Source: a virus
Reading direction: 5' to 3' (one strand)
Virus record (IMG/VR): IMGVR_UViG_3300027904_000001
Length of the DNA: 25,217 nucleotides
The notes beneath the pieces were generated by a model that made no database searches, was not told where the DNA came from, and saw only the letters and a program-made list of their open reading frames with translations. Numbering within the stretch: the first letter of the stretch is position 1; each line of letters opens with the position of its first letter. The position numbers were made by a program, and so were the translations under genes. Of the stretch, positions 1-20,731 are shown in pieces.

Positions 1-364
1 AAATATTGCAATATTTAATAACACAGGTCAAGTAATAGGCTCAGATACTGCTATTAATGATTTAGCTGAAGAATTTTCGTTAGCAAATACTAATTCAATT
101 GAATTAGAAATGGATGAAAACAGAGAAATAATTGCAAATGCAAGAATTTCACAACAATCAAATAATCAATTGTCAGAGTTATCAGATGGTCTATTTGTAT
201 CTGTTTCACCTAAGCCTATTCCAGCGGGTGAAATCGTTGTAGGTACCGGTTTAGACATAACTACAAGCGGAAAAACAATAGTTAATACATTAGATACTAC
301 ATTAGCACTTAATGTTCCTACTGTGGGAGCTGTAATCGATGCTTTGGTAATCGGTACATTTTGA
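1..364 (+). CDS. 5'-truncated CDS of unknown structural function (possibly the portal or capsid C-terminus), ending at 364
   Basis: Frame 2 is open from position 2 to the stop at 362-364. This continues the 110..364 ORF upstream, with no stop before the window edge. It sits 16 nt upstream of the next gene on the same strand. No recognisable motif. Confidence 0.5.
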   Translation, partial: NIAIFNNTGQVIGSDTAINDLAEEFSLANTNSIELEMDENREIIANARISQQSNNQLSELSDGLFVSVSPKPIPAGEIVVGTGLDITTSGKTIVNTLDTTLALNVPTVGAVIDALVIGTF

Positions 365-380
365 TTAAGGGGTTGGTATT

Positions 381-2603
381 TTGGACGTGAAATTGCCAAT
401 TGAACGAGGTACACAAGAAAGATATGACAGTTTAACTCCTGACCCGAGCAAATTGTACATTACAGAGGAACATATTTATGACGGAAATAAATTATTATAT
501 GAACAAGAAGTTGAACATTTAGACGACGACATAAGACATATAACTAATGATGAAAGAGAATATTGGAATAGTTTGGCATTCTCAGGTGGCGGAGGAGGGA
601 CGTCAGTCATTGAATGGAAACCGAGAGCAGAAAGAGTTGATTGGTGGTATCCAAATCCAATAGCTGAATTTCTTGGGAATAGAGCTTATTTTGCGAATGG
701 ATGTTACCATGAAGGCTATTTTTATATGGGTGGTGGGCATAGTGGTGATAGACATGCTCGTTTGAATTTGTTTAGCCGATATAATATATTTGAGAAACGA
801 TGGGAGATGTTACCTGATTCACTTTGGAATACTTATGCATATACCTCTTTTTATGGAAATAAAGAATATATATATGTAGTAAGTGGGCATTACACACCTG
901 ACCCTAGAAATGGGCTAAAAAGATATCATATTCCTACAAAACAATGGGAAAGACTTGCTAATGGCCCAGTGGCTAATATGAATAATAATAGAGGTGGATT
1001 TATCAATGATACTTTATATGTATTAACAGGAACATCTTTATATTCATATGACCCGGTATTAAATCAATGGTCAGGACCTTTGGCATCACCGGGATTTTCT
1101 ACGGATTATGCCTCTGTTGCTATATATCAAAATGAACTTTATGTATTTGGTGCTGTAACAGCGGGTCATGCAGCAAAATACAACCCAATAATGAATACCT
1201 GGACAACGTTAGTAAATGCTAGCACAACAAGCGTTCAAGGCTGGGGGTGTTTAATTGGTAGCAAAATTTATGTTATGGGGAATGCTACTAACTATAAAGT
1301 TTATGATATCCCTACTAATTCATGGACTAACTTAACTGCATTGCCTATAACTATATATCAGCGAGTGGGATTGACAGATGGGAATATTCTTTATTTTATA
1401 GGTGCGGATGCAAATTATACGGCAACGCTTATTCAAGACCCTTTAGTAAGTACAAGCGTATGGAATAGATTTGCATTGGCAGATGCATTATCTTCAATGG
1501 ACAGATGTTCGTTTGCAAGATATAAAGATAAAGTATTTATAGGCGGTGGTGAGTATACCCCTGGCCAATTAATTTCATTTAACCTAAAAACATACGAATT
1601 TGTGCATGAAGGAAATACTTATACAGAATTAACCGGTGGATGGGCTGAATTAAGACATGCCGCAGCATTTGAATATAATGAAGAATTATATTTTGTTGGC
1701 AACCTATCATCTTCAAATGTTTTTAGGAAGTATAATATAAATAACAGAAAATGGGAACAATTGCCTAATTTGCCGTTTAATGTGAGTGGTGCTACATATA
1801 AACTAGGATCTATTGTTTTAAATGATGAGGCTTATATATGTCAAGGACAAGTACCGCCATATAATAATTTTGCAAAGTATAATTTTTCGTTAAATCAATG
1901 GATATTGTTATCTCTAATTCCATGGCAAGCGAGTGGAGGGCATACTACACTTTTTATTTATAAAAATAAAATGTATAGTCAAGAAGGATTGAATATATGG
2001 CAATATAACGAACAAGAAGATACTTGGATATATGATAACGGTACAGTAACTGGAACGCGAAATACTCAGACTGTATCGGGAACTATAGCCGCCGCAGGCT
2101 TAGCTACTAGTCTTACGGGCATATTCAATGATGATAATCCCTTAGCTATCAATTCATTTGCACCGGGAGTAAATGCATCATCTATAGAAGATAATGGTAA
2201 GCTATATATTGTGTCTATGAATGCATCATTTTATCCTATCGAATATGATATTAATAAAAGAATTGGCCGGAGATTGCCCGTTTTTACATTAGCTTTGCAG
2301 GATAGCGGGGTATTTATTGACAATGATTGGTTATATGTGATTTCTCCTGTAGGATATGCAAGCAAAGGATACATTTATATATTTAAATATCATTTGCGTA
2401 GAATGTTGGAACCCGAGATGCCGATCGCAATAATGAACACCGAACAAACATTGTATTATGCATCAAGTCACGATGATTTGTTTTTGACTTTTAAAGGTGA
2501 AAAAATACCAACTGAAACATTTTGGAAGCCGCCAATTAATGGCATAATAATGACGGGCTGGTCAGAATCAGTAGAAGGTGTAGTTAGATTATTTTTATCA
2601 TAA
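381..2603 (+). CDS. Kelch-like tandem beta-propeller repeat protein, possibly a virion fibre or receptor-binding protein; paralog of 17353..19638
   Basis: TTG start at 381 with AAGGGG 5-10 nt upstream. There are about 10 repeats of the Kelch-like pattern (hydrophobic-Y-hydrophobic-G-G ... Y/F-N/D-P-x-T/N-x-W-x-x-L), for example YFYMGGG, LYVFGA, IYVMGN, YNPIMNTW, YDIPTNSW. The central and C-terminal parts align colinearly with the 17353..19638 protein at roughly 50-60% identity, while the N-terminal ~130 aa are unrelated. Confidence 0.8.
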   Translation: MDVKLPIERGTQERYDSLTPDPSKLYITEEHIYDGNKLLYEQEVEHLDDDIRHITNDEREYWNSLAFSGGGGGTSVIEWKPRAERVDWWYPNPIAEFLGNRAYFANGCYHEGYFYMGGGHSGDRHARLNLFSRYNIFEKRWEMLPDSLWNTYAYTSFYGNKEYIYVVSGHYTPDPRNGLKRYHIPTKQWERLANGPVANMNNNRGGFINDTLYVLTGTSLYSYDPVLNQWSGPLASPGFSTDYASVAIYQNELYVFGAVTAGHAAKYNPIMNTWTTLVNASTTSVQGWGCLIGSKIYVMGNATNYKVYDIPTNSWTNLTALPITIYQRVGLTDGNILYFIGADANYTATLIQDPLVSTSVWNRFALADALSSMDRCSFARYKDKVFIGGGEYTPGQLISFNLKTYEFVHEGNTYTELTGGWAELRHAAAFEYNEELYFVGNLSSSNVFRKYNINNRKWEQLPNLPFNVSGATYKLGSIVLNDEAYICQGQVPPYNNFAKYNFSLNQWILLSLIPWQASGGHTTLFIYKNKMYSQEGLNIWQYNEQEDTWIYDNGTVTGTRNTQTVSGTIAAAGLATSLTGIFNDDNPLAINSFAPGVNASSIEDNGKLYIVSMNASFYPIEYDINKRIGRRLPVFTLALQDSGVFIDNDWLYVISPVGYASKGYIYIFKYHLRRMLEPEMPIAIMNTEQTLYYASSHDDLFLTFKGEKIPTETFWKPPINGIIMTGWSESVEGVVRLFLS

Positions 2604-2618
2604 GAAAGGGGAGTATGA

Positions 2619-2972
2619 ATGTATACTTATGAAATATGGGACAAAAAGACATCTATCAATGGTGTGCCAGCGGATAAAGTACTTCAGCAATTTAATGATG
2701 TTGGTAGGGGTTACGTGTATCTTATTCTATTCAACGATCAAGTGATATCAATCCAGCCGCATGACCCTTATAAATCCGGATTTATTGCTATGACAAAAAC
2801 AACAGCTATAAAGCATGCCCAAAAACAAGTGGATGATCTTAATGAAGTATTAACAAAGGCTGATACTAAAGAAGAGTATGAATATGAAGATAGCTATAAA
2901 GATGATTTTACAGATGATTATGCATATACAAAAGATTATGATTATGAAATGAGCGATTATTATGAAATTTAA
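2619..2972 (+). CDS. small hypothetical protein with a strongly acidic Asp/Tyr/Glu-rich C-terminal tail
   Basis: GGGGAG RBS before the ATG at 2619. The C-terminal 40 aa read EEYEYEDSYKDDFTDDYAYTKDYDYEMSDYYEI. Its stop overlaps the next start, indicating translational coupling. Confidence 0.6.
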   Translation: MYTYEIWDKKTSINGVPADKVLQQFNDVGRGYVYLILFNDQVISIQPHDPYKSGFIAMTKTTAIKHAQKQVDDLNEVLTKADTKEEYEYEDSYKDDFTDDYAYTKDYDYEMSDYYEI

Positions 2973-3225
2973 GGATAAGAAGACAGGATATATAAAAGAT
3001 GCAAAAAATAATGAGTTTCTAATAATGTTATATTCAAAATATCCTGATAGATACGAATCATTAAAAGATGATTTAGATCCACCATCTAGACGAATTAACT
3101 ATCCTCCAAAAGGATCGCCAAAACATGAGTTATCAAGGATTGAACAAAAAAAAAATCTACCAAAATCAAGAACACGGAAGAAAAAATCATCAAGAGATGA
3201 CGGACATGACCCTTTAATAAATTAG
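2962..3225 (+). CDS. small, highly basic Lys/Arg-rich hypothetical protein
   Basis: The ATG at 2962 overlaps the upstream stop. The 87-aa product is rich in K and R (for example KSRTRKKKSSRDD). It lies directly upstream of the minor head protein gene. Confidence 0.55.
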   Translation: MKFKDKKTGYIKDAKNNEFLIMLYSKYPDRYESLKDDLDPPSRRINYPPKGSPKHELSRIEQKKNLPKSRTRKKKSSRDDGHDPLIN

Positions 3226-3233
3226 GTGATTAA

Positions 3234-4574
3234 ATGTTGACTGAAAGACAAATGATAACTTTACCCGCTCCAATTGTAAATAAATTTATAAGCTTAGAAA
3301 CGGATGTTATCAAAATGATAGCAAGCCGGATAAAAGCGATAGCTGAGTTAGATACTGAGGATTCTTACAAATTAGCCATAATCAAAAATATAGACAATGA
3401 TTTAGAATATATAAACAATCAATTAAATGATATATTAGCCGGGATAAAAGATGAAATTCATGAGATATATAGTAAAGCTATTGAATCTGAATACAATGAT
3501 TTTTTATCAGATATAGCGGAAAAGATTGTTTTATTATTGCCATTAATATCTGTTTTACCTTTTGCAAATATAATAGCTATTGTATCATCGATTATATCAA
3601 CATCTGCATTGCCATTCAGACGGAAAAGCAGTGAAATGCCTCTGGATACACGATCTATGCTTCAAAGGATAAAAGATCGTGTATTTCCACCCGGAATTGA
3701 GGAAGAGCCTACAGTAGAAAAGCGGTCTATATTCCAAAGATTAAGAGATTTTATTTTTCCATTTAGAAGAAATGATGAAATTCAAACTGCTATAAACATT
3801 GTAACGGATGAGACAACAAATCATATTAAAAATATAACTGAAACTATAGGGTTTCTTAATGTGAATAATGAGTTTAAATCATTACATGAGTTCTATGTAG
3901 ATATCTTAAACAAGGCTGTTACTAATATATATGAGGGGAAGGAAACGTTTTACAATGAGATGCGAAAGACTATTCGAATTATCGCAGATCGCGGATTAAC
4001 TCATGTAGAATATGAATCCGGTCGAAGATTAAGGCTTGATACTGCTGTAAGAACTGCTTTGAACGGCGGGAGATCAAGATTAGCACTTGAAGCAGCTAGA
4101 ATAAATGGTGAAAAATTCGGAGCAGATGGCATGGAAATTTCGTGGCATTCGGCACCAAGGCCATCACATGAATTTATGGGTGGACAACAATATAATATGG
4201 GTACGTTTAATCGAGATATAGTGCCTTTTTTGATGGAAGCAAATTGTTATCATCATGCGTTCCCGATAATTTTGGGTATTTCTATGCCTATTTTTACTCA
4301 AGAAGAAATTAAAGAAATGAATGCAAAAGACAGGGAATTAATGAGATATGGAGACAAAACATATACTAAATATGAAGCTGTACAAGTTCAACGAAAAATA
4401 GAAGCAGCAATCCGGAGAGAAAAAGACAGAGTAACAGCTTTTAAAGCAGCAGGTGATGATGAAGCTGCTAAAATTGCAAGAGCAAAAGCACGAGTATTAA
4501 ATAACCAATATAAAACATTTAGTCAAGCATTAGGGTTAGACATGTATCCTCAACGTACAGCAGGCGTGCTTTAA
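3234..4574 (+). CDS. phage minor head (head morphogenesis) protein, Mu F / SPP1 gp7-like domain
   Basis: AGGTGATTAA-ATG start context. Central motif DTAVRTALNGGRSRLALEAARINGEKFGADGMEISWHSAPRPSHEFMGGQQY ... ANCYHHAFP matches the Phage_Mu_F signature (RTxxxxG ... RxxH ... G ... NCxC/H). The C-terminus is predicted coiled coil. Confidence 0.8.
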   Translation: MLTERQMITLPAPIVNKFISLETDVIKMIASRIKAIAELDTEDSYKLAIIKNIDNDLEYINNQLNDILAGIKDEIHEIYSKAIESEYNDFLSDIAEKIVLLLPLISVLPFANIIAIVSSIISTSALPFRRKSSEMPLDTRSMLQRIKDRVFPPGIEEEPTVEKRSIFQRLRDFIFPFRRNDEIQTAINIVTDETTNHIKNITETIGFLNVNNEFKSLHEFYVDILNKAVTNIYEGKETFYNEMRKTIRIIADRGLTHVEYESGRRLRLDTAVRTALNGGRSRLALEAARINGEKFGADGMEISWHSAPRPSHEFMGGQQYNMGTFNRDIVPFLMEANCYHHAFPIILGISMPIFTQEEIKEMNAKDRELMRYGDKTYTKYEAVQVQRKIEAAIRREKDRVTAFKAAGDDEAAKIARAKARVLNNQYKTFSQALGLDMYPQRTAGVL

Positions 4575-4610
4575 TGAGAATCATTTTTTTTAATTAAGCA
4601 GGTGATTAAA

Positions 4611-5000
4611 ATGCATTTAACATATGATAATTATGTAGAACTTGGATTTGACATTATCCCGGAAGAAAATTTTGACAGATTCTCTGTAATGGCAAGTCTT
4701 TATGTGGATCGTATAACCATGAATCGGTTGTATTCTGAAAAGCCAAGTTATAATAATCTTTTAGGCATAGCTGAAATAGCTGATTTTTTTTACAGAGAAT
4801 ATCAAGCAGATTTGTTATTACAAGAACAGTTAGCTAGCAATAACGGAAGATTAATCAGCGGATTTAAAAATGATACCTATTCTGAAAGTTATGCAGTTGA
4901 TACGCGTAGTGAATCAGATAAAATAGCAGATAGAAATGCTAAATTGCGTGAATATCATAAATATTTTCAGTTATCACAACTTTATAGGGGATTCAGATAA
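4611..5000 (+). CDS. putative head-tail connector/adaptor protein (gp6/gp15-like)
   Basis: The ORF track starts at a GTG at 4602, but that GTG lies inside the AGGTGA Shine-Dalgarno (4600-4605). The ATG at 4611 is the likely start. Size (~130 aa) and position after the MuF-like gene fit a connector. Assignment is by position and loose motif similarity only. Confidence 0.45.
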   Translation: MHLTYDNYVELGFDIIPEENFDRFSVMASLYVDRITMNRLYSEKPSYNNLLGIAEIADFFYREYQADLLLQEQLASNNGRLISGFKNDTYSESYAVDTRSESDKIADRNAKLREYHKYFQLSQLYRGFR

Positions 5001-5431
5001 TGTCCAAATTATTAGGTGCACATCAAACTATGACTATTTGGAACAAATATCGCAATGATGGGCTAGATGCTTGGCAAAGACATATTGTGCCTGATTGCAC
5101 ATGGAGAAAAACTTCAATTAAAACTATAAGTGCCTCTGGAATAGCTAATATTGCCGATTATATTGTTGTGTTAATAAGTGACAATAAAAGCTATATGACT
5201 TTTGATGATTGGAAATTGTTAAGCGATGACGGGAAAAAATACTTTTTTACCATTCAAACTGGAGATTTAGTGGCATTGGGCAAATATAGTATTGAAATAT
5301 TGCTTGATTCTCCCTATAGAGAAATCGAAGTCAAGGAATTGCTTAAACCAGATGTCATAAATATTAAAAGTTTTAGGGTCAATAACTTTGATCATATGTT
5401 AGGTAAACATATAAAATTAGAGGGGGTTTAA
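5000..5431 (+). CDS. putative head-tail joining / neck protein
   Basis: ATAATG overlap with the upstream stop indicates coupling. AGGGGA RBS. The 143-aa product sits in the neck-gene position of the module. Confidence 0.45.
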   Translation: MSKLLGAHQTMTIWNKYRNDGLDAWQRHIVPDCTWRKTSIKTISASGIANIADYIVVLISDNKSYMTFDDWKLLSDDGKKYFFTIQTGDLVALGKYSIEILLDSPYREIEVKELLKPDVINIKSFRVNNFDHMLGKHIKLEGV

Positions 5432-5440
5432 AGTGATTGA

Positions 5441-5821
5441 ATGACGACTCAGAATATTGATGTCAAGTTTAAATGGAATATAGCTCCAATACAATGGATA
5501 AAAAATAATATAACTAAAAATGAGTCTTCAGTTACCCATATGGCTGTTACATGGCATAAACTTTATTTTGATTTTGTCCCCTTTGACAATGGAGATTTAG
5601 CGAAAAATATAGCAATTACGGTTAAAAATGGTAATAATGCATCTATAGCGCATACTATGCCATATGCTCATTGGGTATATGATGGAACGAAGCGAAATAA
5701 AGGAATTTATAAGAAACGATTTCACCCTTTAGCTTCGAAAGAATGGGATAAGGCAGCTAAAGCTGCGGGACGAGATAAAAAATTACTAGAAGAGATGAAA
5801 AAGTACATCAAAGGTAAATAA
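5441..5821 (+). CDS. putative neck / tail-completion protein (minor-capsid-2-like)
   Basis: 126-aa product. The C-terminus (HPLASKEWDKAAKAAG) resembles small 'minor capsid' neck proteins of Gram-positive siphophages. Recognised from memory only. Confidence 0.45.
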   Translation: MTTQNIDVKFKWNIAPIQWIKNNITKNESSVTHMAVTWHKLYFDFVPFDNGDLAKNIAITVKNGNNASIAHTMPYAHWVYDGTKRNKGIYKKRFHPLASKEWDKAAKAAGRDKKLLEEMKKYIKGK

Positions 5822-5836
5822 AGTTTTGTAAATGGG

Positions 5837-6295
5837 ATGATTTATATAACAATTAATAAGGATTTAAATTTATTCAATTGGCTAAAGACTAATCCTTTGC
5901 TAACTGATACTTTAAAATTTGATTTTCTTGGAGCTGATAATAATAGTTGTAGTATATCACCTATTCCTGAAGATACTACAATAAAAACTTATATAGACGG
6001 TACTAAAGTGAAACAATATTCGTTCGCTTTACAATCGTCTTTTTCAGTTTCTGAGAATACAGATATGATAAATATAGAAAATATGAAAGTTTTAAGGTCT
6101 TGGCAAGATTGGCTAAGCGAACAAAATGGAATAAAAAACTTTCCAGATTTTGGAGAAAATTGTGAGATTTATAAACTAGAAGTATTGTCCAATCCACAAA
6201 TGTCGCAATTCTTTGAAAACGGGATTGCCACATATCAGTTCTTTTTAAGATTAGAATATATCGAATACAAGAATAATAGAAAAGGAGAAAAATAA
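5837..6295 (+). CDS. putative tail terminator / neck protein
   Basis: 152-aa ORF immediately upstream of the major-tail-like gene. Assigned by position only. Confidence 0.4.
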   Translation: MIYITINKDLNLFNWLKTNPLLTDTLKFDFLGADNNSCSISPIPEDTTIKTYIDGTKVKQYSFALQSSFSVSENTDMINIENMKVLRSWQDWLSEQNGIKNFPDFGENCEIYKLEVLSNPQMSQFFENGIATYQFFLRLEYIEYKNNRKGEK

Positions 6296-6297
6296 AA

Positions 6298-6843
6298 ATG
6301 GCAGTATTAGACACAACAATAAGATGGCAAATAGCTGATTTTATAAATGATGCACCTGGTGATGCAATTCCTGAATGGAAGTTTTGCGGCCCGGGATTTA
6401 CTCAATTAGATGAATCGCCAAACGCTCAAACAGATACTACGGCTTATATCTCAGATAGATCGGCAACTACAATAACAACATCTTATCAAGGCGAATTTGC
6501 ATTTTCAATTGACCTAATAACATCTGAACCGTCAATTATATCAATCTACAAGATAGGCAGGAATCAATTGACTGGTTCAGCGGCACAAGTAGAATATGTA
6601 AGAGTGGAATCTTTTTGGCCAAGCGACGAGATATCTGTTTTCCCCGCTAGAAAATTTTTAGTAACGGTAGTTGTTTCTGATATTTCTGGCCCCGGTGCGG
6701 AAAAAATTACCATGAGCGGAACACTAAATCAAATGGGTGATTTTACAGACGGAACATTTAATATCGATACAAAAGAATTCATACCAGGCGAGAGTGATTT
6801 GTCGGTATCTGGTTTATTAGGCGGGAAACCTAACGGTTATTAA
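6298..6843 (+). CDS. putative major tail protein
   Basis: Strong AAGGAGA RBS. 181-aa protein rich in T/S/G. It sits immediately before the chaperone-like genes and the tape measure gene, which is the canonical position of the major tail protein. Confidence 0.55.
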   Translation: MAVLDTTIRWQIADFINDAPGDAIPEWKFCGPGFTQLDESPNAQTDTTAYISDRSATTITTSYQGEFAFSIDLITSEPSIISIYKIGRNQLTGSAAQVEYVRVESFWPSDEISVFPARKFLVTVVVSDISGPGAEKITMSGTLNQMGDFTDGTFNIDTKEFIPGESDLSVSGLLGGKPNGY

Positions 6844-6860
6844 GAAAGGAATGCTAATCA

Positions 6861-7349
6861 ATGCGTGTATTACATTTTGAAGTACCTGATTTCAAACAAT
6901 TTGTGATAAATAATTATCAGTTTAAATTGTTAAAATCAGATATGGATATAATTACAAGATCAACAGAACTGCAAAATAAATATGCATATTTTACCGATAA
7001 AGAAAAATTTGATAAGGATGACCCTAAATCAATCCCTTTAATCCGGGACGCAGTCTTAGAAATTGCTAATTATATTAACGAAACATTAGAAACAGTTGCA
7101 AAAGTAATAACAAATGATAATGGAGATATTATTCAGGTTGTAAAAACATATGAATCGGGAGAATTAACAGCTATTAATGCAATTTTTGGTAATGTTCCCA
7201 TTGGTATGATAGATACTATCTCGTTATTAGGGTTTATCAATACTGAAGTTATTAAAGAGTATAACGCAAGTACTGTTAAAAAATACGGTGAGCAGGAAGA
7301 AAATGTAGATTTAATTGAAACTGATTCAGATGAAGAATATGTACAATAA
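6861..7349 (+). CDS. putative tail assembly chaperone (gpG-like)
   Basis: AAAGGA RBS. 162-aa product with an acidic C-terminus, between the major-tail-like gene and the tape measure gene. Its 3' end overlaps the next ORF by 35 nt. Confidence 0.5.
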   Translation: MRVLHFEVPDFKQFVINNYQFKLLKSDMDIITRSTELQNKYAYFTDKEKFDKDDPKSIPLIRDAVLEIANYINETLETVAKVITNDNGDIIQVVKTYESGELTAINAIFGNVPIGMIDTISLLGFINTEVIKEYNASTVKKYGEQEENVDLIETDSDEEYVQ

Positions 7350-7923
7350 CTTTACATTGTCAATAAATAACAAAGGAAATCTATTCCCTACAAAAATAAT
7401 TTGTGACGGCGAAGATTATAATATTAATTCGGACTTCCGAACAATTCTAAAAGTATTACGATTAAATGAAGATCAAGAAATATTCCCTCAACAAAAATGC
7501 TTAATGATGTTGAAATGGTTTTATACTAACAAATATCCAAATGATTTGCAAAAAGGCATTGAATCATTGTTTGGATTTATTTGTAATAATCCAATTGATG
7601 ATGATGAATCTAAAAAACCACCTCAATATGATTTTGAATATGATGCGGAAGAAATATATATAAGCTTTTTAAAAGATTATGATATTGGTTTAGTTGAAAT
7701 CGATTTTTTACATTGGTACAAGTTTCGCACAATGTTAAGGAATTTATCTGAAGAAAGCCCATTAATGCAACGTATTAGGCTTCGTTTCCTTGATCTAAAG
7801 GATTACAAAGGTAAAAGAAGAGCTGAATTGAGCGAAGCAAAGAAAAAAGTGCAAATACCTGAAAAGATTAATAAAAAAGATAAAGAAGCTAAAGATAATT
7901 TGTTCAAAAGATTGCAAAATTGA
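7315..7923 (+). CDS. Gp15-like tail assembly protein (Listeria A118 gp15 family-like)
   Basis: The motif LHWYKFRTMLRNLSEESPLMQRIRLRF resembles the 'Bacteriophage Gp15' family found between major tail and tape measure genes. Recognised from memory. The start is uncertain: TTG at 7315 or ATG at 7330/7339, none with a good Shine-Dalgarno. Confidence 0.5.
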   Translation: MKLIQMKNMYNNFTLSINNKGNLFPTKIICDGEDYNINSDFRTILKVLRLNEDQEIFPQQKCLMMLKWFYTNKYPNDLQKGIESLFGFICNNPIDDDESKKPPQYDFEYDAEEIYISFLKDYDIGLVEIDFLHWYKFRTMLRNLSEESPLMQRIRLRFLDLKDYKGKRRAELSEAKKKVQIPEKINKKDKEAKDNLFKRLQN

Positions 7924-8006
7924 TAATGTAAAGCAGGTGATTTAATATAGCAGCGGGGACAATTGAAATTTCGACTGTTCTTGACACAGCCGAATTAAAA
8001 TCGGCA

Positions 8007-11000
8007 ATGGATGGGTTGGGTAACTTAATAACAAAAGGTGCAGCAGCAGTAGCAGGGGCTTTAGTTGCCATTGGTACTGCAAGTTTAAAAACAGGCATGG
8101 ATTTTGAACGAGAAATGAAAAATCTTCAGGCTATAATGGGAATCACTGGCGAAGCGGCAGAAATTGAAATGGCACAAATATCTGAAGGGATTCGTAAAGT
8201 TGCTGTAGATTCAGGAAGTAGTGTTATTGAAATAGCTGCTAATGCAAAAATGTTAGCGGAAGCAGGCGGCGATGTTAATTTAATGATGGCTCAATTAACT
8301 CATGGCGTTAATTTAGCGAATGCAACTCAAACAGATATGGCTACAACATTAGATTTTCTTGGTTCAACAATGAAGACATTTGGCATAGAAGCAGATGATA
8401 CACAATCTGTAGTTGACAGTTTTGCTCTTGTAACATCACTCGCCAATGTCGAATTATCACAATTAGGCGAATCTTATGTAAACGCGGGTGGATCTGCCGC
8501 TCAAGCTGGACTGAGTATAGATGATGTTAATGCAGTTTTAATTACGTTTGCGAATGCTGGTTTAAAAGGTGGTGCAGCTGGAACTGCTTTAAACTCTGTA
8601 TTAAAAAATCTTAGAACCCCAACTAATACAGCTGCAAAAGAATTAGATAGATTGGGTATTGCACTATATGAAGCTAATGGCGAGAGCCGAGACATGTTTG
8701 ATATTATGAGTGATTTAGAAGGTGCATTGTCAAACATGACAGATGAACAAAGAAGTCGTTCAGAGGCCATTATATTTGATTCAGTGGCTCAAAAAGGCTG
8801 GAATATGCTTATGGACGAAGGTATTGACGCAATAGTAGAGCTCAGCAGTGAATTAGCTGACTCTGTTAATGCTTTTGATGGCATGGGGCAAGCGGCCGGA
8901 ATGGCGGCTATCCAATCACAAAGTTTAAGCGGGATGCTTAATAGTTTAAAGGCTCAGTTTACTGAAATGGGATTATTAATCTATGATCAAATGGAAAAGC
9001 CATTAAAAACAGCTTTATCTGGAGTACTTGCATCCATGAATGAATTAAGAGAGAGCATGGTGTCTGGCGGATTAAGTGATGCTATTGCGAAAATTGGTGA
9101 AGGATTTGCATTATTAGTTGAAGTGCTTGTAAAATTGGCAGTCATGGCATTACCTACGATTCTTGGTTTATTAGGCGGATTCGCAGATATTCTTGGACGA
9201 GTTGCGCTTGCAATCGTAGGCGTAATAGAAGCAATTGGTGATAAATTTATGTCACCTGAAATGGCTGATAATATCCAGAAGATTAATGAAGCTTTTGATC
9301 GGTTAAAAGCAGCATTGCCTGAAGGCGATTTAATTCAATTAATAGCGGATGCATTCACGATATTATTGTCTGCTTTAATAGATATAATCGTTACTGTTAT
9401 TCCACCAATATTAGATTTTTTCACATGGATAGTAGATAATTTTAATACTATTGCTGGACTTGTAATCGCTGTAGCAACAGGTTTTGCGGCTTTTCAGATC
9501 GTGACAACTATAATCCCGCTAATAGCTGGATTAAGCGGGGCATTTGCAGGATTTCAGTTAATTCTAGCGGGCTGGTCATCAACGATTGCAATGGCGGGTG
9601 GCATATTGCCTGCTTTGGGTGGAGCAATAGCGGCCTTGGTTTCACCAATAGCACTTGTTATAGGAGCAATTGCAGCATTAGTTGCTGGGTTTATTTATTT
9701 TTATAATACAAATGAAGATTTTAGAAATAAAGTAAACGAGATTTGGGATAATATAAAAGAATTTATTGTAAATGCTGTTATTGTTATCAAAGATACTATA
9801 ATTAATATAGCTGATTCTATTAAAGATGCTTGGGTAAATATGATGTCATTTTTAGCAGATATTGGTGTTATTGATCTGATAATTGATACTTGGAATAATC
9901 TGAAAGAAAGTATAGCATCAATTATTAATTCGATAAAAGATATATTTACTGGGTTAATTTCACACATGTCTGATTCGGGGGCTTTTGAAGGATTATTAAA
10001 CGCATTTACGAGTATTTGGAATGCAATAAAAGATTTTTTTGCAACAGTCATTCCAGCGATATCAGAATTGTTTACAGAGCATTTTTCAGCGATTGCAGAA
10101 TTTATAACTTTAGTGTTTACTGGTATTAAAAATTTCTTAGGCAGTATATTCTCGGTCATATTAACGATTATAGGGGTTTCATTATTTGGAATATTTGCAT
10201 TCGTAACAGACATTTTTTCAGGCATTGCGGCTTTTCTTGAAACACATGGAGAAACTATTAAGACTATATTGATTGTTGCATGGGAATTAGCATGGGCTAC
10301 AATTCAACCTATTTTAAATTTTATCAGCGAAGGTATAAAATTAGTCGGTGATATGGTAAAAAATACTGTTGATATGATATCAGGCATACTTTCAGGCGAC
10401 TGGGCTAAGGCTTGGGAAGGTGCAAAGGGAATATTAGAAGCTACATTTAATGCAATTGATTTAATATTTCAAACGTTCAAACAAATTGCAATAAATACAT
10501 TTAATGTTTTCAAAGATGATTTAATTCAATTATGGGAGACTTTAAAACAAACCGTAACCAATAAAGCTACAGAATTAGTAACCGGAGTTGTAGAAAAGTT
10601 TAATTCTATAAAATCAGATGCGATACAAGCGTGGGAAAATTTAAAAACATCTGTAATAAATATAGTGAATGAATTAGTTTCTTCAATTACTGAGTTTTTT
10701 AACGATTTGCCTTATTTGATAGGATATGCTATTGGGGTTGCAGCAGGGTTAGTAGTGGCAGGAATTGTAATAATGGCCGAAGCATTTATCGATTTTATAA
10801 CTAATGATGTACCGCAATTTATTGATGGAATTGTAGAATGGTTTTCACAATTACCAGATAGAATAAATGAATGGTTAATTAATACTATTAATAATATAAC
10901 TGAATTTTTCGTCAATATTGTAACAATGGCAGAATCTGAAACTCAAAGAATTATAGAAAGTATAATTACTTGGTTTTCTCAATTGCCTGATAGAATATCA

Positions 11001-12446
11001 GAATGGCTGACAAATGCTGCAAATATAATAAATGAGTTTTTTTCTAATCTTAGTACTGTTGCGGCCTCAGAATCACAAAGAATTATTGATAGTATAATAG
11101 AATGGTTTTCACAGCTTCCAACTAGAATATCGGAATGTTTACAAAATACAGTACAGCGATTTATTGAATTTTTTGCTAATATGGGAGCGACAGCTTCGTC
11201 AGAATCTCAAAATATTATTACAAATATAATAAATGCTTTTACTAATTTACCTAGTTTGTTAGCCGATATGGGAAGAAATGCAATACAAGGATTGGTTAAT
11301 GGGATTCAAGAACGAGCGGGAGCCGCTATTGCTGCTGTAAGAGATATTGCGTCCGGAATAGCAGATGGCTTTAGAAGCGTTATGAATATGCGGTCTCCAT
11401 CAAGAGTAATGCAAGAAATCGGAGAGTTTGTAGGTGAAGGTCTTGAAATTGGTATTGAAAATAGCGCAAAAAATATAATCGATTCCACTGAAGATATTGG
11501 TAATAATATAATAAAAAATTTGCAAGACACATCGGAAGAAACAGAAATTATAGGAAAATCATTTTTAAGTAATTTCGGGGATGGATTAACAAATACATCT
11601 GATTCTATAAAATCTATAGTTAATGATATCAGCTCTGCATTAGGTAAAGAATTTATGGAAAATCTTATTGATAATATGTCTGATGCATTTGAAAATGTCA
11701 AAAATATAATAAATCAACAATGGGATAATGTTAAGAGTATATCTAAAAGTGCTATTGATGAATTAAATACAAATTTAAAAGACACATTGAAAAGCATACA
11801 AGACAATTGGCGTTCAATATGGGAATCAATTAATAAATCATTTACGGAAACTTCAAACAGTATTAAAAATATAGCTAATAATATTGTTAATACTGTTAAG
11901 GACGCATTTAATAATAAATTGCAATATTTACAAAGTATAGACCTATATTCAATTGGGGCAAATATGATGCAAGGGCTTATGAATGGTATCATGAGCATGG
12001 CAAACAATATAATGAATTCAGTCCAAAACATAGCAAATAATATTATAAATACAATGCAAAGCATTTTACAAATAAGATCTCCTTCAAGAGTTGCTATGAC
12101 AATAGGTAAAGATTTTTCGTTAGGAATAGCAATAGGATTAGAAAAAGAAGCAGGACAAATAGAAGATAGTATTAATAATATAACAGATAGAATGTCTGAC
12201 ATTGATTTTACAGATATGTTTGCTAAAGGTAAAATTAATATGCCAAACATGACATTGCCACCCGATAAATTTGCACAAATTATGGCAAGCGGAACACAAG
12301 CATCAACTAGTACATCTATAGATAGAGGAATAACAATTAATTTTAATAATTATGCTCCAATTAATTCAGAATTAGATATAGAAATGATAATGCAACGGAT
12401 AGGAAATAGAGTCCGTGATGAAGAACGATCAAGGGGGTTAAACTAA
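8007..12446 (+). CDS. tail tape measure protein
   Basis: 1479 aa. The N-terminus (GNLITKGAAAVAGALVAIGTASLKTGMDFEREMKNLQAIMG ...) matches the TP901-family tape-measure core. It has long Ala/Gly/Ile-rich hydrophobic segments, three ~44-aa tandem repeats, and two copies of an RSPSRV-x3-IG motif. The true start may lie upstream near the strong Shine-Dalgarno at 7935-7940 (see finding). Confidence 0.9.
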   Translation: MDGLGNLITKGAAAVAGALVAIGTASLKTGMDFEREMKNLQAIMGITGEAAEIEMAQISEGIRKVAVDSGSSVIEIAANAKMLAEAGGDVNLMMAQLTHGVNLANATQTDMATTLDFLGSTMKTFGIEADDTQSVVDSFALVTSLANVELSQLGESYVNAGGSAAQAGLSIDDVNAVLITFANAGLKGGAAGTALNSVLKNLRTPTNTAAKELDRLGIALYEANGESRDMFDIMSDLEGALSNMTDEQRSRSEAIIFDSVAQKGWNMLMDEGIDAIVELSSELADSVNAFDGMGQAAGMAAIQSQSLSGMLNSLKAQFTEMGLLIYDQMEKPLKTALSGVLASMNELRESMVSGGLSDAIAKIGEGFALLVEVLVKLAVMALPTILGLLGGFADILGRVALAIVGVIEAIGDKFMSPEMADNIQKINEAFDRLKAALPEGDLIQLIADAFTILLSALIDIIVTVIPPILDFFTWIVDNFNTIAGLVIAVATGFAAFQIVTTIIPLIAGLSGAFAGFQLILAGWSSTIAMAGGILPALGGAIAALVSPIALVIGAIAALVAGFIYFYNTNEDFRNKVNEIWDNIKEFIVNAVIVIKDTIINIADSIKDAWVNMMSFLADIGVIDLIIDTWNNLKESIASIINSIKDIFTGLISHMSDSGAFEGLLNAFTSIWNAIKDFFATVIPAISELFTEHFSAIAEFITLVFTGIKNFLGSIFSVILTIIGVSLFGIFAFVTDIFSGIAAFLETHGETIKTILIVAWELAWATIQPILNFISEGIKLVGDMVKNTVDMISGILSGDWAKAWEGAKGILEATFNAIDLIFQTFKQIAINTFNVFKDDLIQLWETLKQTVTNKATELVTGVVEKFNSIKSDAIQAWENLKTSVINIVNELVSSITEFFNDLPYLIGYAIGVAAGLVVAGIVIMAEAFIDFITNDVPQFIDGIVEWFSQLPDRINEWLINTINNITEFFVNIVTMAESETQRIIESIITWFSQLPDRISEWLTNAANIINEFFSNLSTVAASESQRIIDSIIEWFSQLPTRISECLQNTVQRFIEFFANMGATASSESQNIITNIINAFTNLPSLLADMGRNAIQGLVNGIQERAGAAIAAVRDIASGIADGFRSVMNMRSPSRVMQEIGEFVGEGLEIGIENSAKNIIDSTEDIGNNIIKNLQDTSEETEIIGKSFLSNFGDGLTNTSDSIKSIVNDISSALGKEFMENLIDNMSDAFENVKNIINQQWDNVKSISKSAIDELNTNLKDTLKSIQDNWRSIWESINKSFTETSNSIKNIANNIVNTVKDAFNNKLQYLQSIDLYSIGANMMQGLMNGIMSMANNIMNSVQNIANNIINTMQSILQIRSPSRVAMTIGKDFSLGIAIGLEKEAGQIEDSINNITDRMSDIDFTDMFAKGKINMPNMTLPPDKFAQIMASGTQASTSTSIDRGITINFNNYAPINSELDIEMIMQRIGNRVRDEERSRGLN
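10836..11231 (+). repeat. three degenerate 132-bp (44-aa) tandem repeats inside the tape measure gene
   Basis: The units begin gaatggttttcacaattaccagatagaata (10836), acttggttttctcaattgcctgatagaata (10968) and gaatggttttcacagcttccaactagaata (11100). They encode EWFSQLPDRI(N/S)EWL ... ESQRII(E/D)SII. Confidence 0.8.
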
Positions 12447-12995
12447 TTGACACCTAATAGTTTTAATATTAATACACCAAATTTAAATAGTTTTGATACA
12501 TGGGGTATAAAAGTTATTATATACGATGTATTTAGTCCTAATAAGCGTAGTAGGCGGAAACAAATTCCGTTTAGACATGGTTCATATGACATGGGGTATG
12601 AAAAATATTATGATGACAGGAATTTAAGAATAGAATGTCATTTAACAAAAAAATTATCAAAGGCTGACTTTAGAGAAATAATATATGTTTTGTCTCAAAA
12701 AAGCAGCCTTTATTTTTGGGATGAGCCAGATAAATTTTATAGATGTGAATTATTTGATTCAGTGGATATTAATGTTTTCCCTCAAGAAATTGGACGTGTT
12801 TTTATATTGCCTTTTGTTTGTGAACCTTTTGCATATGGAAGAATGGAGACAATAAAATTTAATGCTGGCAAAAATCCTATTGAATATATAGGAACCGTGC
12901 AAACACCTACTATATTGATAATCAAAAATAATAATGATTTCCCAATTAGTAATATATTAATTACCGCTATAGAACAAATACGGGCTATAGGTTAG
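12447..12995 (+). CDS. distal tail protein (Dit), Sipho_tail family-like, short form
   Basis: TTG start directly after the tape measure stop, with AAGGGGG RBS. The pattern FRHGSYDMGYEKYYDDRNLRIECHL ... LYFWDEPDKFYRCELFD ... FILPFVCEPFAYG matches the Sipho_tail Dit signature (ipgrdG ... c.l ... fsdepdk.Y.a ... f.c.Pf.y). It is only 182 aa, so the usual C-terminal domain is missing. Confidence 0.65.
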   Translation: MTPNSFNINTPNLNSFDTWGIKVIIYDVFSPNKRSRRKQIPFRHGSYDMGYEKYYDDRNLRIECHLTKKLSKADFREIIYVLSQKSSLYFWDEPDKFYRCELFDSVDINVFPQEIGRVFILPFVCEPFAYGRMETIKFNAGKNPIEYIGTVQTPTILIIKNNNDFPISNILITAIEQIRAIG

Positions 12996-13005
12996 GAGGT
13001 AAGGA

Positions 13006-13794
13006 ATGCAAGCAACACACCATTTTGAAGAAATAATTCTTAATACATTTAATAATGTAACAGCTATGGGATTAAGCCAAGGATTTGTAGCATTATTTGC
13101 TAGTAATCCTACTGATACAGGGATAGCAGGAATTGAAATAAATTATCCAGGGTATGCAAGAATTCCGGTAACTTGGACACCACCATATGAAGCGCAAAAT
13201 AATAGTATAGAGATTGTTAATGTCAATGATTTATTATGGGAAGCATCACAATTTGATGTCGGTGAAGCGCGATTTATTGGTATATCTAATTCACAACCTG
13301 TTGGCTCTGGAAATTTATTCTTATGGGCTCCTTTATCAATTCCATTAGTAATTAGAGCAGGCAACCAACCAAGTATACATGCCGGAGATATAATGTTTAA
13401 TCTTGTTGGTGATACAAGTCGTGATTTTAGAGTTAGGATTATGAATATTCTACGAGGTCAAAATCTGAATGGGTTTATCCCTCATTTATGTTTGTTTGAC
13501 GGAGATCCTGAAGCAGGTGGCAATGAACTATCAGGCCAAAATTATAGTAGACCATTAATAAACTTTTCACAACCAGCAGTTCAAGTTAGCGGGCAAACAC
13601 AAATTCAGAATACTAATTTAATCAGATTTCCTGCACCACAAGCTGTTTGGGGCAATTGGGCATGGGATGGAATTAGGGATGCCGCAATTGGAGGTAATTT
13701 AGTAACAAAAGCTATCAATGCTATTCCCGAATTGATACAACGGAATTATATTCCACAAGTGCCCCCTGGTGATTATAGAATTGGTGTTAACTAA
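13006..13794 (+). CDS. hypothetical tail/baseplate structural protein
   Basis: AGGAGG RBS. 262 aa, sitting between Dit and Tal. No confident family assignment. Confidence 0.6.
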   Translation: MQATHHFEEIILNTFNNVTAMGLSQGFVALFASNPTDTGIAGIEINYPGYARIPVTWTPPYEAQNNSIEIVNVNDLLWEASQFDVGEARFIGISNSQPVGSGNLFLWAPLSIPLVIRAGNQPSIHAGDIMFNLVGDTSRDFRVRIMNILRGQNLNGFIPHLCLFDGDPEAGGNELSGQNYSRPLINFSQPAVQVSGQTQIQNTNLIRFPAPQAVWGNWAWDGIRDAAIGGNLVTKAINAIPELIQRNYIPQVPPGDYRIGVN

Positions 13795-14504
13795 TGGATG
13801 GTAATTTAACATTAAATCGATTTAATTTAACTCGATATAGTATGCCTGAAACGCCAATTATTGAAAGGAACTTCAGCCGGACAATAAATATGAATTTTAT
13901 GGCTGTAGCTGGCGGGCGATTATATTTAGATTTTAGTCGCAATATGAATACAAACTTTACTGGCAGAACAGATATGCATGCAGTAATAATATTTAAGCGA
14001 AATTTAAATATTAGTTTCAATTCACAAGTTGAAATGAATATGTATATGAACGCTTTGCGCAATATTAATAATAAATTTTTTGGCAATGCATATGCAGGCA
14101 AAAAAATAAATTTTAGTAGAAATATAGAGTCTGAGTTAAAGTCTAATATACATGTTGGCAAAATTATTCCATTAATGCGCAACTCTCAAACTAGATTTGA
14201 AGCATGTGCGCATGCTGGGAAATATATCAATTTTGATAAAAATATACAAAGTATCTTTACTAGTTTTGTCGCAATGGGATTATCTCGTCATGCAGTTGCT
14301 ATTATTAATGTTGATTTAAATCCAGGTGAAGAAATACGGATAGATTCTGATATATTCACTGCTATGAAAGGCGATAAGAATATATTACATTTATATAATG
14401 GTGATTGGGTATATATCAATAGAAATACTGTTATATTACAAACAGAAGCTGGCTCAGGTGGAGATTTAGATATAGAATTAGTATATGTAACTAGATATTT
14501 ATGA
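13794..14504 (+). CDS. hypothetical structural protein with about five tandem ~22-aa repeats (FSRNxNxNF ... consensus)
   Basis: TAATG overlap with the upstream stop. Repeats read RNFSRTINMNFMAVAGG / FSRNMNTNFTGRTDMHA / FKRNLNISFNSQVEMN / KKINFSRNIESELKSN / KYINFDKNIQSIFTSF, followed by a non-repetitive C-terminal ~70 aa. Confidence 0.6.
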   Translation: MDGNLTLNRFNLTRYSMPETPIIERNFSRTINMNFMAVAGGRLYLDFSRNMNTNFTGRTDMHAVIIFKRNLNISFNSQVEMNMYMNALRNINNKFFGNAYAGKKINFSRNIESELKSNIHVGKIIPLMRNSQTRFEACAHAGKYINFDKNIQSIFTSFVAMGLSRHAVAIINVDLNPGEEIRIDSDIFTAMKGDKNILHLYNGDWVYINRNTVILQTEAGSGGDLDIELVYVTRYL

Positions 14505-14505
14505 G

Positions 14506-16671
14506 GTGATGCGATTGCAGGAGCCAAGATTAAGAGTTTACAATTTGCAACGGCAATTGACTGGGATTTTGCAAAATGCTTATAATATGAAAGAAGATTT
14601 AGTTATAAATGCAATAAGTCATTTTGAATTCTCATTGCCTTTAGATGATCACAAAAATAATTTGTGTAAACCATTCCATTATATTAGATATGATAACGGT
14701 CAATTATATCGAATAATGCCATCTGAACAAGAAATAGATGAGACAGGCGGCATACAATACAAATGTGAACATGTATTAGCTTTGCTTATTGGTAGAGCTT
14801 TAGCGGGAGAACATGTCGTTGGTAATATTGGGATGCCTACTGATGTAGTTATAAATTGGGTACTTGATAAGCAAAATAAAACATATGATTTATTTAGTAA
14901 ATCATGGAATATTGATCCAAGGAAATCAGTTGATTGGGTTCTGGGCGAATGTGATTTTTCAAGGCAATTTGAATATGGCTGGCAAAAAGAAAATTGTTTA
15001 AGAGCATTATTTAGTATAGCAAATCGATTTGTTGAAAATTACATTTGGACATTTGATACAAATGTATATCCTTATATAATAAATCTAAAAAAAATAGACC
15101 AAACTATAAACCCTGAAATGTATATTCGTGGTGGCAAAAATCAAATTAAATTAGTAAAGTCTCAAGACCCTACATCTATTGTTACAAGAATAATCCCTTA
15201 TGGTGTCGGAGAAGGTGATAATCAACTTACTGTTAATGAAGTTAATAATAATATTTCATATATTGAAAGTCCATCTCATATTATTGATGAATACGGGTTG
15301 ATTGAAACACAATGGATTGATAGGCGTTATGAAGACCCTCAATCATTATTGGAATCTGCCCAAGTAATGTTAGAAGCAATGCAAGAACCTTATGAAGAAT
15401 ATAAAGTAGATTTTACCATACTTGGCAAAAGTAATTTCGATATCCCTGAACTTGGCAAAATAGTAGAATTGATCGATTTAAATAAAAGAACATTTATTAC
15501 AGGCATAAAATATGATTACGAAGAAATATTAAATTCGCAATTAACGATTGCTAACAAATCACGTAATATAGCGGGCACTGTAGCTGAGTTAATGGATAGG
15601 CAACGTATAGAGATGGCATATGCACAGGGTAGTACTACAATATTTCAAGTAGATGCACGGGATAATGCGCAAGATAATTTCCCTTGTATTCTTAGAATAA
15701 TGTTTTTTAGCGATTTAATTATAATTAATAAAGTTGTTTTGGATATAGAAATAACTGCAGCCATAATACCGTTTACTTCAACCGGTGGTGGCGGTGGTCA
15801 AACTGTAACCCAATCAAATACAACATCCAGCGGAGCAAGTAGTACTACAACTACAAATAGTGGCGGTTCTTCCAGCCCTACTACAGCAAGTGGCGGTTCT
15901 TCCAGCCCTACTACAGCAAGTGGCGGGGGAACATCAACCAGTACAGAAAGTGGAGGCGGGCAGACCAGCGGGTCAAGTTCAATATCCACGACAGGGAGCA
16001 ACCCTACTCAAACTAGTAGTACAACTACCCAACAATCATTAACTAGCCATGATGCTGGACAAGTGCAACGCGGTAATGCAACAACTCGCAACTTGAATCC
16101 TGATAGTACTGGCGGTGCCAGTACCGGAGTTGCACATACGCATAGCTTGATGCAACATACTCATACAGTGGAAGTCACTACGTATCATACGCATAATGTA
16201 ACAATCCCTGGTCATAGTCACACAGTACCGAGTCATGAGCATGGGATGGCACATACTCATAATGTAGCCGCCCATAGCCATAGTTTTAGTGTACCAAGCC
16301 ATACGCATAGTGTAACAATAGCGGCTCATACACATACTGTAACTATACCTAGCCATACTCATGAAATGGCACATACTCATTCAATCGCACATACACATTC
16401 AATACCTGACCATACGCATTTATTAAGTCCGATTATATCGTATTCAGGTAATCCAACCTTTTTTAGATTGTTTGTAAATGGGATACACCGACAAACAGTT
16501 GATGGTCGAACATTACAAAGAGATATTGTCCCATTTTTAGTAGATGATAAAGGTTATTTGACTCGTGATATGTATCATAGAATAGAAGTGTATCCAAATA
16601 CAGCTGGCAATGTACGAATGTCTGTAAGCGTAAAAGCATTTAATCAAAGTCGCGGACCACATTCAGTTTAA
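14506..16671 (+). CDS. tail-associated lysin / tail tip protein (Tal) with a C-terminal Ser/Thr/Gly linker and His-x-His repeat region
   Basis: GTG at 14506 or ATG at 14509, directly after the upstream stop. The first ~400 aa sit in the Tal position after Dit and are the expected size of a prophage-tail/Tal N-domain. Residues ~425-510 are an S/T/G/P low-complexity linker. Residues ~545-640 contain about 13 H-x-H motifs (AHTHSL, HTHTV, HSHTV, HEHGM, HTHNV, HSHSF, HTHSV, HTHTV, HTHEM, HTHSI, HTHSI, HTHLL). Confidence 0.8.
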   Translation: MMRLQEPRLRVYNLQRQLTGILQNAYNMKEDLVINAISHFEFSLPLDDHKNNLCKPFHYIRYDNGQLYRIMPSEQEIDETGGIQYKCEHVLALLIGRALAGEHVVGNIGMPTDVVINWVLDKQNKTYDLFSKSWNIDPRKSVDWVLGECDFSRQFEYGWQKENCLRALFSIANRFVENYIWTFDTNVYPYIINLKKIDQTINPEMYIRGGKNQIKLVKSQDPTSIVTRIIPYGVGEGDNQLTVNEVNNNISYIESPSHIIDEYGLIETQWIDRRYEDPQSLLESAQVMLEAMQEPYEEYKVDFTILGKSNFDIPELGKIVELIDLNKRTFITGIKYDYEEILNSQLTIANKSRNIAGTVAELMDRQRIEMAYAQGSTTIFQVDARDNAQDNFPCILRIMFFSDLIIINKVVLDIEITAAIIPFTSTGGGGGQTVTQSNTTSSGASSTTTTNSGGSSSPTTASGGSSSPTTASGGGTSTSTESGGGQTSGSSSISTTGSNPTQTSSTTTQQSLTSHDAGQVQRGNATTRNLNPDSTGGASTGVAHTHSLMQHTHTVEVTTYHTHNVTIPGHSHTVPSHEHGMAHTHNVAAHSHSFSVPSHTHSVTIAAHTHTVTIPSHTHEMAHTHSIAHTHSIPDHTHLLSPIISYSGNPTFFRLFVNGIHRQTVDGRTLQRDIVPFLVDDKGYLTRDMYHRIEVYPNTAGNVRMSVSVKAFNQSRGPHSV
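15861..15926 (+). repeat. perfect 30-bp tandem duplication (2.2 copies) in the Tal linker
   Basis: tggcggttcttccagccctactacagcaag occurs at 15861-15890 and 15891-15920, followed by tggcgg. It encodes GGSSSPTTAS twice. Confidence 0.9.
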
Positions 16672-16683
16672 AGGAGTGCCAGA

Positions 16684-16902
16684 ATGGAGGTTTTTAAAAT
16701 AGATAATTTTAATTTTCGAGATGGATTCAATGTATATTTGGACGGACAATTATTGTCAGATGTTTATGCATTGCAAATTTCTGTGAATAGAGAACAAGAC
16801 AGTGAATTTGATAAAAACAAAATAACTGTTGCATATAGAATTAATGGGCATGAAGCCTTAATTTCAGCTAAGTTAGGAGCGATAAGTTTTGGCAGAACTT
16901 AA
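16684..16902 (+). CDS. small hypothetical protein (72 aa)
   Basis: AAGGAG RBS 8 nt before the ATG. It sits between Tal and the fibre genes. Confidence 0.5.
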   Translation: MEVFKIDNFNFRDGFNVYLDGQLLSDVYALQISVNREQDSEFDKNKITVAYRINGHEALISAKLGAISFGRT

Positions 16903-19638: not shown

Positions 19639-19654
19639 AAGGAGGATAAAAAAA

Positions 19655-20719: not shown

Positions 20720-20731
20720 ATAATATTTATA

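Follow-up and report, generated by a model that had tools for sequence, protein, structure and literature searches.

The stretch analyzed here is a record of viral DNA of 25,217 nucleotides (nt; IMG/VR virus record IMGVR_UViG_3300027904_000001), referred to in the following as the window. It carries a gene for a MuF-like minor head protein (3234..4574) that leads directly into neck and tail genes. We show that, relative to all relatives examined, this MuF gene has been uprooted from its slot after the portal gene and now stands directly before the head-tail adaptor gene. We consider it very probable that the window corresponds to the right two-thirds of the late region (with the genes for morphogenesis and lysis) in a complete, uncultivated siphophage of ~89 kb, attributed to Bacillota, whose full head gene set lies upstream and whose MuF gene has moved. 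Judged by sequence, this siphophage is divergent but complete, with protein identities to its relatives of 27-47% and a shuffled head module.

Head genes upstream of the window

Listing of open reading frames (ORFs) and family scans revealed no capsid, scaffold, portal or terminase gene inside the window. The original prediction had considered either a non-canonical head-gene order with the capsid genes upstream of position 1 or a capsid-less derivative, and had proposed to extend the contig upstream and to check its genes with Pfam. In this way, terminase, portal, scaffold and HK97-type capsid genes were all found. An identical MuF protein, without a single residue changed, is on record for two metagenomic contigs. 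Positions 1..14574 of the window corresponded to positions 6768..21341 of locus L001 at 100% identity, and L001 is part of the ENA contig ERZ27257344 k141_5718961 (89,136 bp). A second assembly, L002, was 100% identical to the window and equal to L001 across all 14,102 nt. Further to the right, one 30-nt repeat unit and three substitutions distinguished the window from the ENA contig, indicating that the window stems from a third, near-identical assembly. Contig content was known for ~45 kb of the 89-kb contig, to which all gene counts given here refer, and scans for exact 40-mers in IMG/VR, JGI metagenome contigs and GTDB genomes, aimed at the rest of the contig, yielded zero matches. In coordinates of L005 and L001, the following packaging and head genes were assigned:

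L005 283-1581, same strand: large terminase (TerL), 432 amino acids (aa); phrog_2, E 1.2e-33; PF03237, E 1e-6
L001 2552-4105, same strand: SPP1-type portal protein, 517 aa; PF05133, E 2.6e-12; phrog_533, E 3.9e-79
L001 4216-4863, same strand: scaffold protein; PF06810, E 1e-19
L001 4886-5842, same strand: HK97-type major capsid protein, 318 aa; PF05065, E 3.8e-19; phrog_10, E 4e-41

Measured to the left from window position 1, the capsid gene ends at a distance of 926 nt, the scaffold gene starts at 2.55 kb, the portal gene starts at 4.2 kb and the TerL gene ends at 12.6 kb. Residues 6-296 of the capsid protein could be aligned with the solved HK97-fold capsid 8eci_C (E 9.2e-60), and the capsid of S. 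aureus 80alpha (6b0x) was matched as well. The presumed arrangement with capsid genes beyond the left edge was thus borne out. Scaffold and capsid genes just upstream in canonical order had been named as a finding that would speak against the original prediction; both genes are indeed there, but their order relative to MuF is non-canonical.

Taken alone, the window with its lack of capsid, scaffold, portal and terminase genes could be read as a capsid-less derivative, i.e., a defective prophage remnant or a tailocin-like, tail-only particle that kept MuF and neck genes and lost its capsid genes. However, the terminase, portal, scaffold and HK97-type capsid genes that the contig carries directly upstream are all intact and belong to the same operon-like array on the same strand, and the MuF, neck and lysis genes are intact, too. 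Because all of these genes, together with the tail genes, are intact on one strand, we regard the capsid-less reading as refuted, with next to no probability left to it. The morphogenesis set found comprises TerL, portal, scaffold, HK97-type capsid, MuF, neck, tube, chaperones, tape measure, Dit and Tal. Beyond the right edge of the window and as far as the contig end, genes for phage replication and regulation follow (Phage_rep_O, HTH_3, YopX), and no bacterial housekeeping gene turned up in the 45 kb read.

From TerL to portal, a stretch of 8.4 kb (L005 1582-10000; about -12,600 to -4,200 relative to the window) holds ~22 small genes on the same strand and constitutes an unusual interruption of the packaging module. 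Three DnaD-like/RepA_N/HTH_36 replication-initiator paralogues (124, 86 and 286 aa) are encoded in this interval, as is a Tad2-like (Thoeris anti-defence) protein. The portal protein itself has a C-terminus (L001 3900-4105) that is ~50 aa longer than in relatives and ends with a duplicated motif of ~26 aa, GIITPIQYRMKWYGETEEEAEYNLRN / GIISPVEFRIKWFTETEQEAQNAIEK.

Relocation of the MuF gene

The MuF gene and the genes to its right, as far as the major tail gene, were assigned as follows:

3234..4574, + strand: MuF2-type minor head protein (SPP1 gp7-like), 446 aa; PF06152 Phage_min_cap2, E 2.1e-51; phrog_581, E 4e-48
4602..5000, + strand: head-tail adaptor, 132 aa; phrog_541, E 4.6e-10
5000..5431, + strand: neck protein (DUF6751), 143 aa; PF20536, E 1.2e-6; phrog_3366, E 2e-19
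5441..5821, + strand: neck/head-closure protein (Minor_capsid_2), 126 aa; PF11114, E 1e-10; phrog_556 and phrog_5, Neck1/tail completion
5837..6295, + strand: tail completion protein, 152 aa; phrog_3266, E 3e-25
6298..6843, + strand: tail tube (major tail) protein, 181 aa; PDB 11ok_A, E 2.4e-20; phrog_3099

The coordinates originally predicted for MuF were right, and the four small ORFs listed between it and the major tail gene (132, 143, 126 and 152 aa) were recognized as adaptor, neck, neck and tail completion genes, followed by the tube gene. With all five otherwise assigned, the statement that neither a capsid nor a scaffold gene lies between MuF and the tail genes holds. Searches of PDB sequences with the MuF, adaptor and tail completion proteins gave zero matches, and the Minor_capsid_2 protein returned two chance-level matches only (E 0.02-0.04).

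Read from left to right, the contig carries TerL, 8.4 kb of small genes, portal, scaffold, capsid, five genes for proteins of 90, 299, 740 (Kelch), 117 and 87 aa, MuF, adaptor, neck, tube, tail and lysis. MuF is thus the eighth gene after the portal gene (+8), and 5.9 kb separate its start from the portal stop. For an observation on gene order, relatives are the pertinent yardstick rather than chance, and we compared this order with that of eight relatives (L003, L004, L006, L008, L009 and L017-L019). They include five cultured phages (Fontainebleau, RG-TP1, PMBT5, FP_Lugh and Deep-Purple), the loci of the two closest MuF homologues, P0122 (44% identity, L008) and P0124 (41%, L009), and L006 with P0007 (43% identity), which is among the closest portal homologues and is the closest one on a long contig. 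In all eight, the portal gene is followed by zero to three small genes, by MuF and then by scaffold, capsid and adaptor; the genes for P0122 and P0124 come directly after their portal genes. The canonical order of portal, MuF, scaffold, capsid and adaptor is thus universal among the relatives compared and is not found in the phage studied here. Because all eight relatives are canonical, the position of MuF reflects a derived rearrangement rather than the lack of a capsid. The literature describes the position at +1 of the portal as a strong rule for MuF genes (Jamet et al. 2017, PMC5576092). At +8, the gene is still inside the 'vicinity' of that study (within 10 genes of the portal; PMC5576092) but beyond the capsid gene. 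For one further MuF protein, P0121 (280 aa, 'partial' at NCBI), the genomic position was not located.

The usual MuF slot, the gap between the portal and scaffold genes, is a mere 110 nt long, with a terminator-like hairpin inside. This GC-rich hairpin with its run of seven T residues (L001 4113-4136) stands right behind the portal stop, where the relatives have their MuF gene. At its present site, MuF is flanked by gaps of 8 and 36 nt. The gene in front of it (2962..3225) overlaps its own predecessor by 11 nt and stops 8 nt short of MuF, and from scaffold to tube the intergenic gaps range from -11 to 98 nt, on one strand throughout.

No convincing recombination scar was found at MuF. The exact 11-mer AGGTGATTAAA, which comprises a ribosome-binding site and spacer, occurs only twice in the window, at 3224-3234 and 4600-4610, and thus at both edges of the gene, where it belongs to a 22-nt, 86%-identical direct repeat flanking MuF. 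These repeats were set aside as a candidate scar because their shared core is the phage's usual ribosome-binding-site/start context, also present, with one mismatch, before other genes. The occurrence of AGGTGATTAAA at the MuF edges may reflect only a shared translation-start context.

A blastn search with window positions 1-8000 against 50,697 phage records gave no match, and the phage therefore has no close cultured relative. At the protein level, similarity to the relatives was mosaic: MuF, neck and tube proteins were closest to L008 (29-46% identity to the counterparts there, with no L008 protein matching the portal), the capsid protein to Fontainebleau (47%) and the portal protein to L006 (43%). 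The adaptor shared 29% identity with the L008 protein encoded right after the capsid gene, the neck protein at 5000..5431 shared 34% with a syntenic 139-aa protein, and the tail completion protein shared 46% with its counterpart. Such mosaic similarities are commonly seen after module exchange. They could also point to two juxtaposed elements or an assembly chimera, with portal, scaffold, capsid and fibres contributed by one element and MuF, neck, tail and lysis genes by another, an origin that would fit the second Kelch fibre gene to the left of MuF as well as the replication-type genes between TerL and portal. However, the 45 kb read contain every essential morphogenesis gene exactly once, the junction, with its gaps of 8-36 nt near MuF, shows neither an integrase nor an att-like repeat or a strand switch, and identical junctions recur across independent assemblies. 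As mosaic similarity is, moreover, normal for temperate Bacillota phages, we judge a juxtaposition or chimera to be very improbable.

In the MuF protein, the MuF2 core is kept in the N-terminal (aa 1-90) and C-terminal parts, with invariant residues common to seven homologues. A lineage-specific insertion of ~70 aa (aa ~91-163; window 3504-3722) is absent from the seven closest homologues. It contains a transmembrane-like hydrophobic 19-mer (aa 98-116; Kyte-Doolittle peak 2.57) and an internal repeat, RSMLQRIKDRVFPP / RSIFQRLRDFIFPF. The protein has no toxin domain: the PF06152 match extends as far as aa 429 of 446, with no second Pfam domain found, whereas several MuF homologues carry PF03496 or PF15542. 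The insertion raises the alternative that the product of 3234..4574 is no longer a head protein and was co-opted by way of its hydrophobic segment as a neck-associated or ejection/membrane protein, which would leave a head without portal-bound MuF. A gene that adjoins neck genes instead of the portal gene, an insertion unique to this lineage and the finding that MuF/gp7 proteins are ejected together with DNA in SPP1 (literature cited in PMC5576092) are in line with this idea. The conservation of both core parts and of their invariant residues relative to canonical homologues argues for a retained head function, and the position of a gene does not fix the assembly site of its protein. We thus regard co-option as unlikely.

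Returning to a complete siphophage with a relocated MuF gene, the particle would be assembled in the normal way, with MuF presumably recruited to the procapsid via the portal irrespective of gene position. The late genes would form one tightly packed same-strand operon, and their order may have arisen from the module shuffling that is typical of mosaic phages. Some points weigh against this interpretation. With only ~45 of 89 kb read, a second MuF copy or more head genes may be present elsewhere. The three assemblies, all of them metagenomic, probably stem from a single project and may share an assembly artefact. The displaced order was not found in any relative, and the arrangement therefore rests on one lineage. 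Finally, the virion position and function of the proteins encoded between capsid gene and MuF, which are described below, are inferred only.

A fibre-like cassette between the capsid and MuF genes

The interval from capsid gene to MuF is occupied by a 4.3-kb cassette with five genes, the second of which extends across the left edge of the window:

L001 5941-6213, same strand: 90-aa protein; no family match
L001 6232-7131, same strand: 299-aa fibre-like protein; its last 120 codons are window 1..364
1..364, + strand: C-terminal 120 codons of the 299-aa fibre-like protein; no capsid family match
381..2603, + strand: Kelch beta-propeller protein, 740 aa (Kelch 740); Pfam Kelch_6, E 2.7e-21; phrog_16120, virion structural protein; PDB Kelch-domain matches
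2619..2972, + strand: 117-aa protein, cassette member; phrog_11837 (unknown function), E 2e-6
2962..3225, + strand: 87-aa basic protein, last cassette gene; no Pfam or PHROG match

The truncated ORF at 1..364 had been presented by the original prediction as the sole capsid candidate, as unclassifiable and as a possible C-terminus of a capsid protein. This view missed the 740-aa ORF at 381..2603, which encodes a Kelch beta-propeller and no capsid, and the fragment could be classified as the end of the 299-aa protein. No capsid family in Pfam or PHROG was matched, whether by the 120-aa fragment or by the complete 299-aa protein; the actual capsid protein is encoded upstream by an ORF of its own.

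Kelch 740 resembles a second Kelch protein of 761 aa (Kelch 761; 17353..19638), encoded at the end of the tail module, with 39% identity over aa 74-740 (E 2e-147); the N-termini of the two are unrelated. Over its first ~65-85 residues, Kelch 740 shows homology to the start of the 299-aa protein (37% identity, E 2e-8). Kelch 740 is probably a fibre or receptor-binding protein, and Kelch 761 is a probable receptor-binding protein. Given the N-terminal anchor domain that Kelch 740 and the 299-aa protein share, unlike the tail-tip Kelch protein, both are probably extra fibres at another virion site, for which the head, the neck or the baseplate periphery would come into question. We infer that they are accessory fibre/adhesin proteins with one common attachment site, distinct from that of Kelch 761. 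The recorded version of the Kelch 740 gene encodes 738 aa, probably owing to a different start codon, and an IMG/VR search for Kelch relatives gave one distant, uninformative match in a 212-kb contig.

Family matches of the 299-aa protein were limited to a tail-tip motif below threshold (PF24243) and a weak match to a PHROG tail protein. It has few homologues, and its central domain recurs in P0180, encoded within a myophage-type baseplate cluster (Phage_base_V, P0180, Collar, Gp10_C, gp25-like, P2_I), and in P0181, the product of a lone chromosomal gene with a collagen-like N-terminus. An AlphaFold2 (AF2) model of low confidence (predicted local distance difference test score, pLDDT, 49) had a fibre-like build of two beta domains, the first of them small, with a helix of 50 residues between them, and was not used as evidence; a Foldseek comparison of this model with the PDB returned nothing below E 0.7. 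The 90-aa and 299-aa proteins share the C-terminal motif L-x-I-G-T-F. The 90-aa protein also carries the motif 'GEEDQVLTKLSDDDFDIGW', presumably of a kind that occurs in phage minor tail and fibre proteins. For the 117-aa protein, no counterpart was detected in any of the relatives' loci.

The cassette could represent a second fibre set that derives from a duplicated Kelch-propeller receptor-binding module with another anchor, common to it and the 299-aa protein, and is mounted on the head or neck instead of the tail tip, and its insertion could be what displaced MuF. We offer this scenario tentatively, as a rather doubtful one; if true, the phage would be a siphophage with head- or collar-mounted adhesins.

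Tail and lysis genes

The remaining assigned genes of the window encode tail and lysis functions:

6861..7349 and 7315..7923, + strand: tail assembly chaperone pair (162-aa protein and Gp15-family protein) between the tube and tape measure genes; PF06854 Phage_Gp15, E 3e-34
8007..12446, + strand: tape measure protein, 1479 aa; PF10145 PhageMin_Tail, size and position
12447..12995, + strand: Dit; PF05709
13006..13794, + strand: Gp80-domain protein; PF23140
14506..16671, + strand: Tal-like protein; PF06605
17353..19638, + strand: second Kelch protein (Kelch 761), 761 aa, end of the tail module; Kelch families
20165..20719, + strand: HNH endonuclease; phrog_374, E 2e-54
20787..21659, + strand: endolysin; phrog_7698
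22397..22705, + strand: holin; phrog_6918

Through the lysis genes, the window is one same-strand array, which is followed by leftward early-type genes. No tRNA and no Rfam families were found in the window. The tape measure gene encodes three tandem repeats of ~45 aa (window 10900-11500), each with 'EWFSQLP(D/T)RI(N/S)EWL'. The PF23140 Gp80 domain (13006-13794) bears the name 'podophage GP4 fiber I protein' (E 2.4e-28) and is located here in a siphophage baseplate module, and the PHROGs label for the same protein is 'head protein'. The Tal-like protein (14506-16671) has a low-complexity linker rich in serine, threonine and glycine, followed by a C-terminal region rich in HxH / 'HTHS' repeats, which are reminiscent of metal-binding fibre motifs. 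Within its gene, a perfect 30-nt tandem repeat of 2.3 copies (15859-15926) encodes a Ser/Gly/Thr/Pro linker; its copy number varies among the near-identical assemblies, with one unit fewer in the ENA contig than in the window. Between the tail fibre and endolysin genes (19639-20719), ~500 nt without a called long ORF precede the free-standing HNH gene.

Implications

These results demonstrate that MuF and portal genes need not stay coupled, in contrast to the strong +1 rule of the literature, that a head module can take up fibre genes and that large insertions, such as the 8.4 kb between terminase and portal, can be tolerated in the late operon of a siphophage. Annotation pipelines based on gene order would mislabel genomes with such an arrangement. 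A note of caution also follows: the apparent lack of a capsid gene arose from the truncation of the window at its left edge, and ~1 kb of contig extension resolves it. The residual points are minor and mainly of interest to specialists in phage genomics.

Comparison with known systems

Accessory head or neck fibres are known from the phi29 head fibre gp8.5 and the T4 fibritin whiskers, the genes of which lie beside capsid or neck genes rather than in a tail-tip module. The cassette likewise places fibre-like genes by the capsid and neck genes; no sequence or fold similarity was detected. In beta-propeller receptor-binding proteins of Gram-positive siphophages, such as those of S. aureus phages and of Brochothrix phage NF5 (PMC12917162), as in Kelch 761, a propeller is found on a fibre-like protein at the distal end of the tail module. 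Here, the propellers are of the Kelch type and occur in two paralogues, one of them in the head module with another anchor.

With the MuF polymorphic toxins (Jamet et al. 2017, PMC5576092), the protein studied here shares the Pfam family of its N-terminal MuF2 domain and the location of its gene in the packaging/head region, at most 10 genes from the portal. Unlike these toxins, it has an internal hydrophobic insertion and no C-terminal toxin domain, and its gene is at +8 instead of +1 of the portal (PMC5576092).

The protein families are those of the SPP1/A118/Sfi11-type pac siphophage head-neck-tail module, as present in Fontainebleau (Acutalibacter), RG-TP1 (Ruminococcus), Lugh (Faecalibacterium), Deep-Purple (Bacillus) and phiCD38-2 (C. 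difficile). Common to both are TerL, the gp6-type portal, MuF2 (PF06152), the PF06810 scaffold, the HK97-type capsid, the phrog_541 adaptor, Minor_capsid_2, tail completion and tube proteins, the Gp15 chaperone, the tape measure protein, Dit and Tal, and the contig proteins are 27-47% identical to those of the phages named. In the latter, MuF directly follows the portal gene, whereas here it comes after the capsid gene, at +8. In further contrast to the phages named, a 4.3-kb fibre-like cassette is found here between capsid and MuF, 8.4 kb of small genes extend from TerL to portal, and the contig measures ~89 kb compared with 31-41 kb for those phages.

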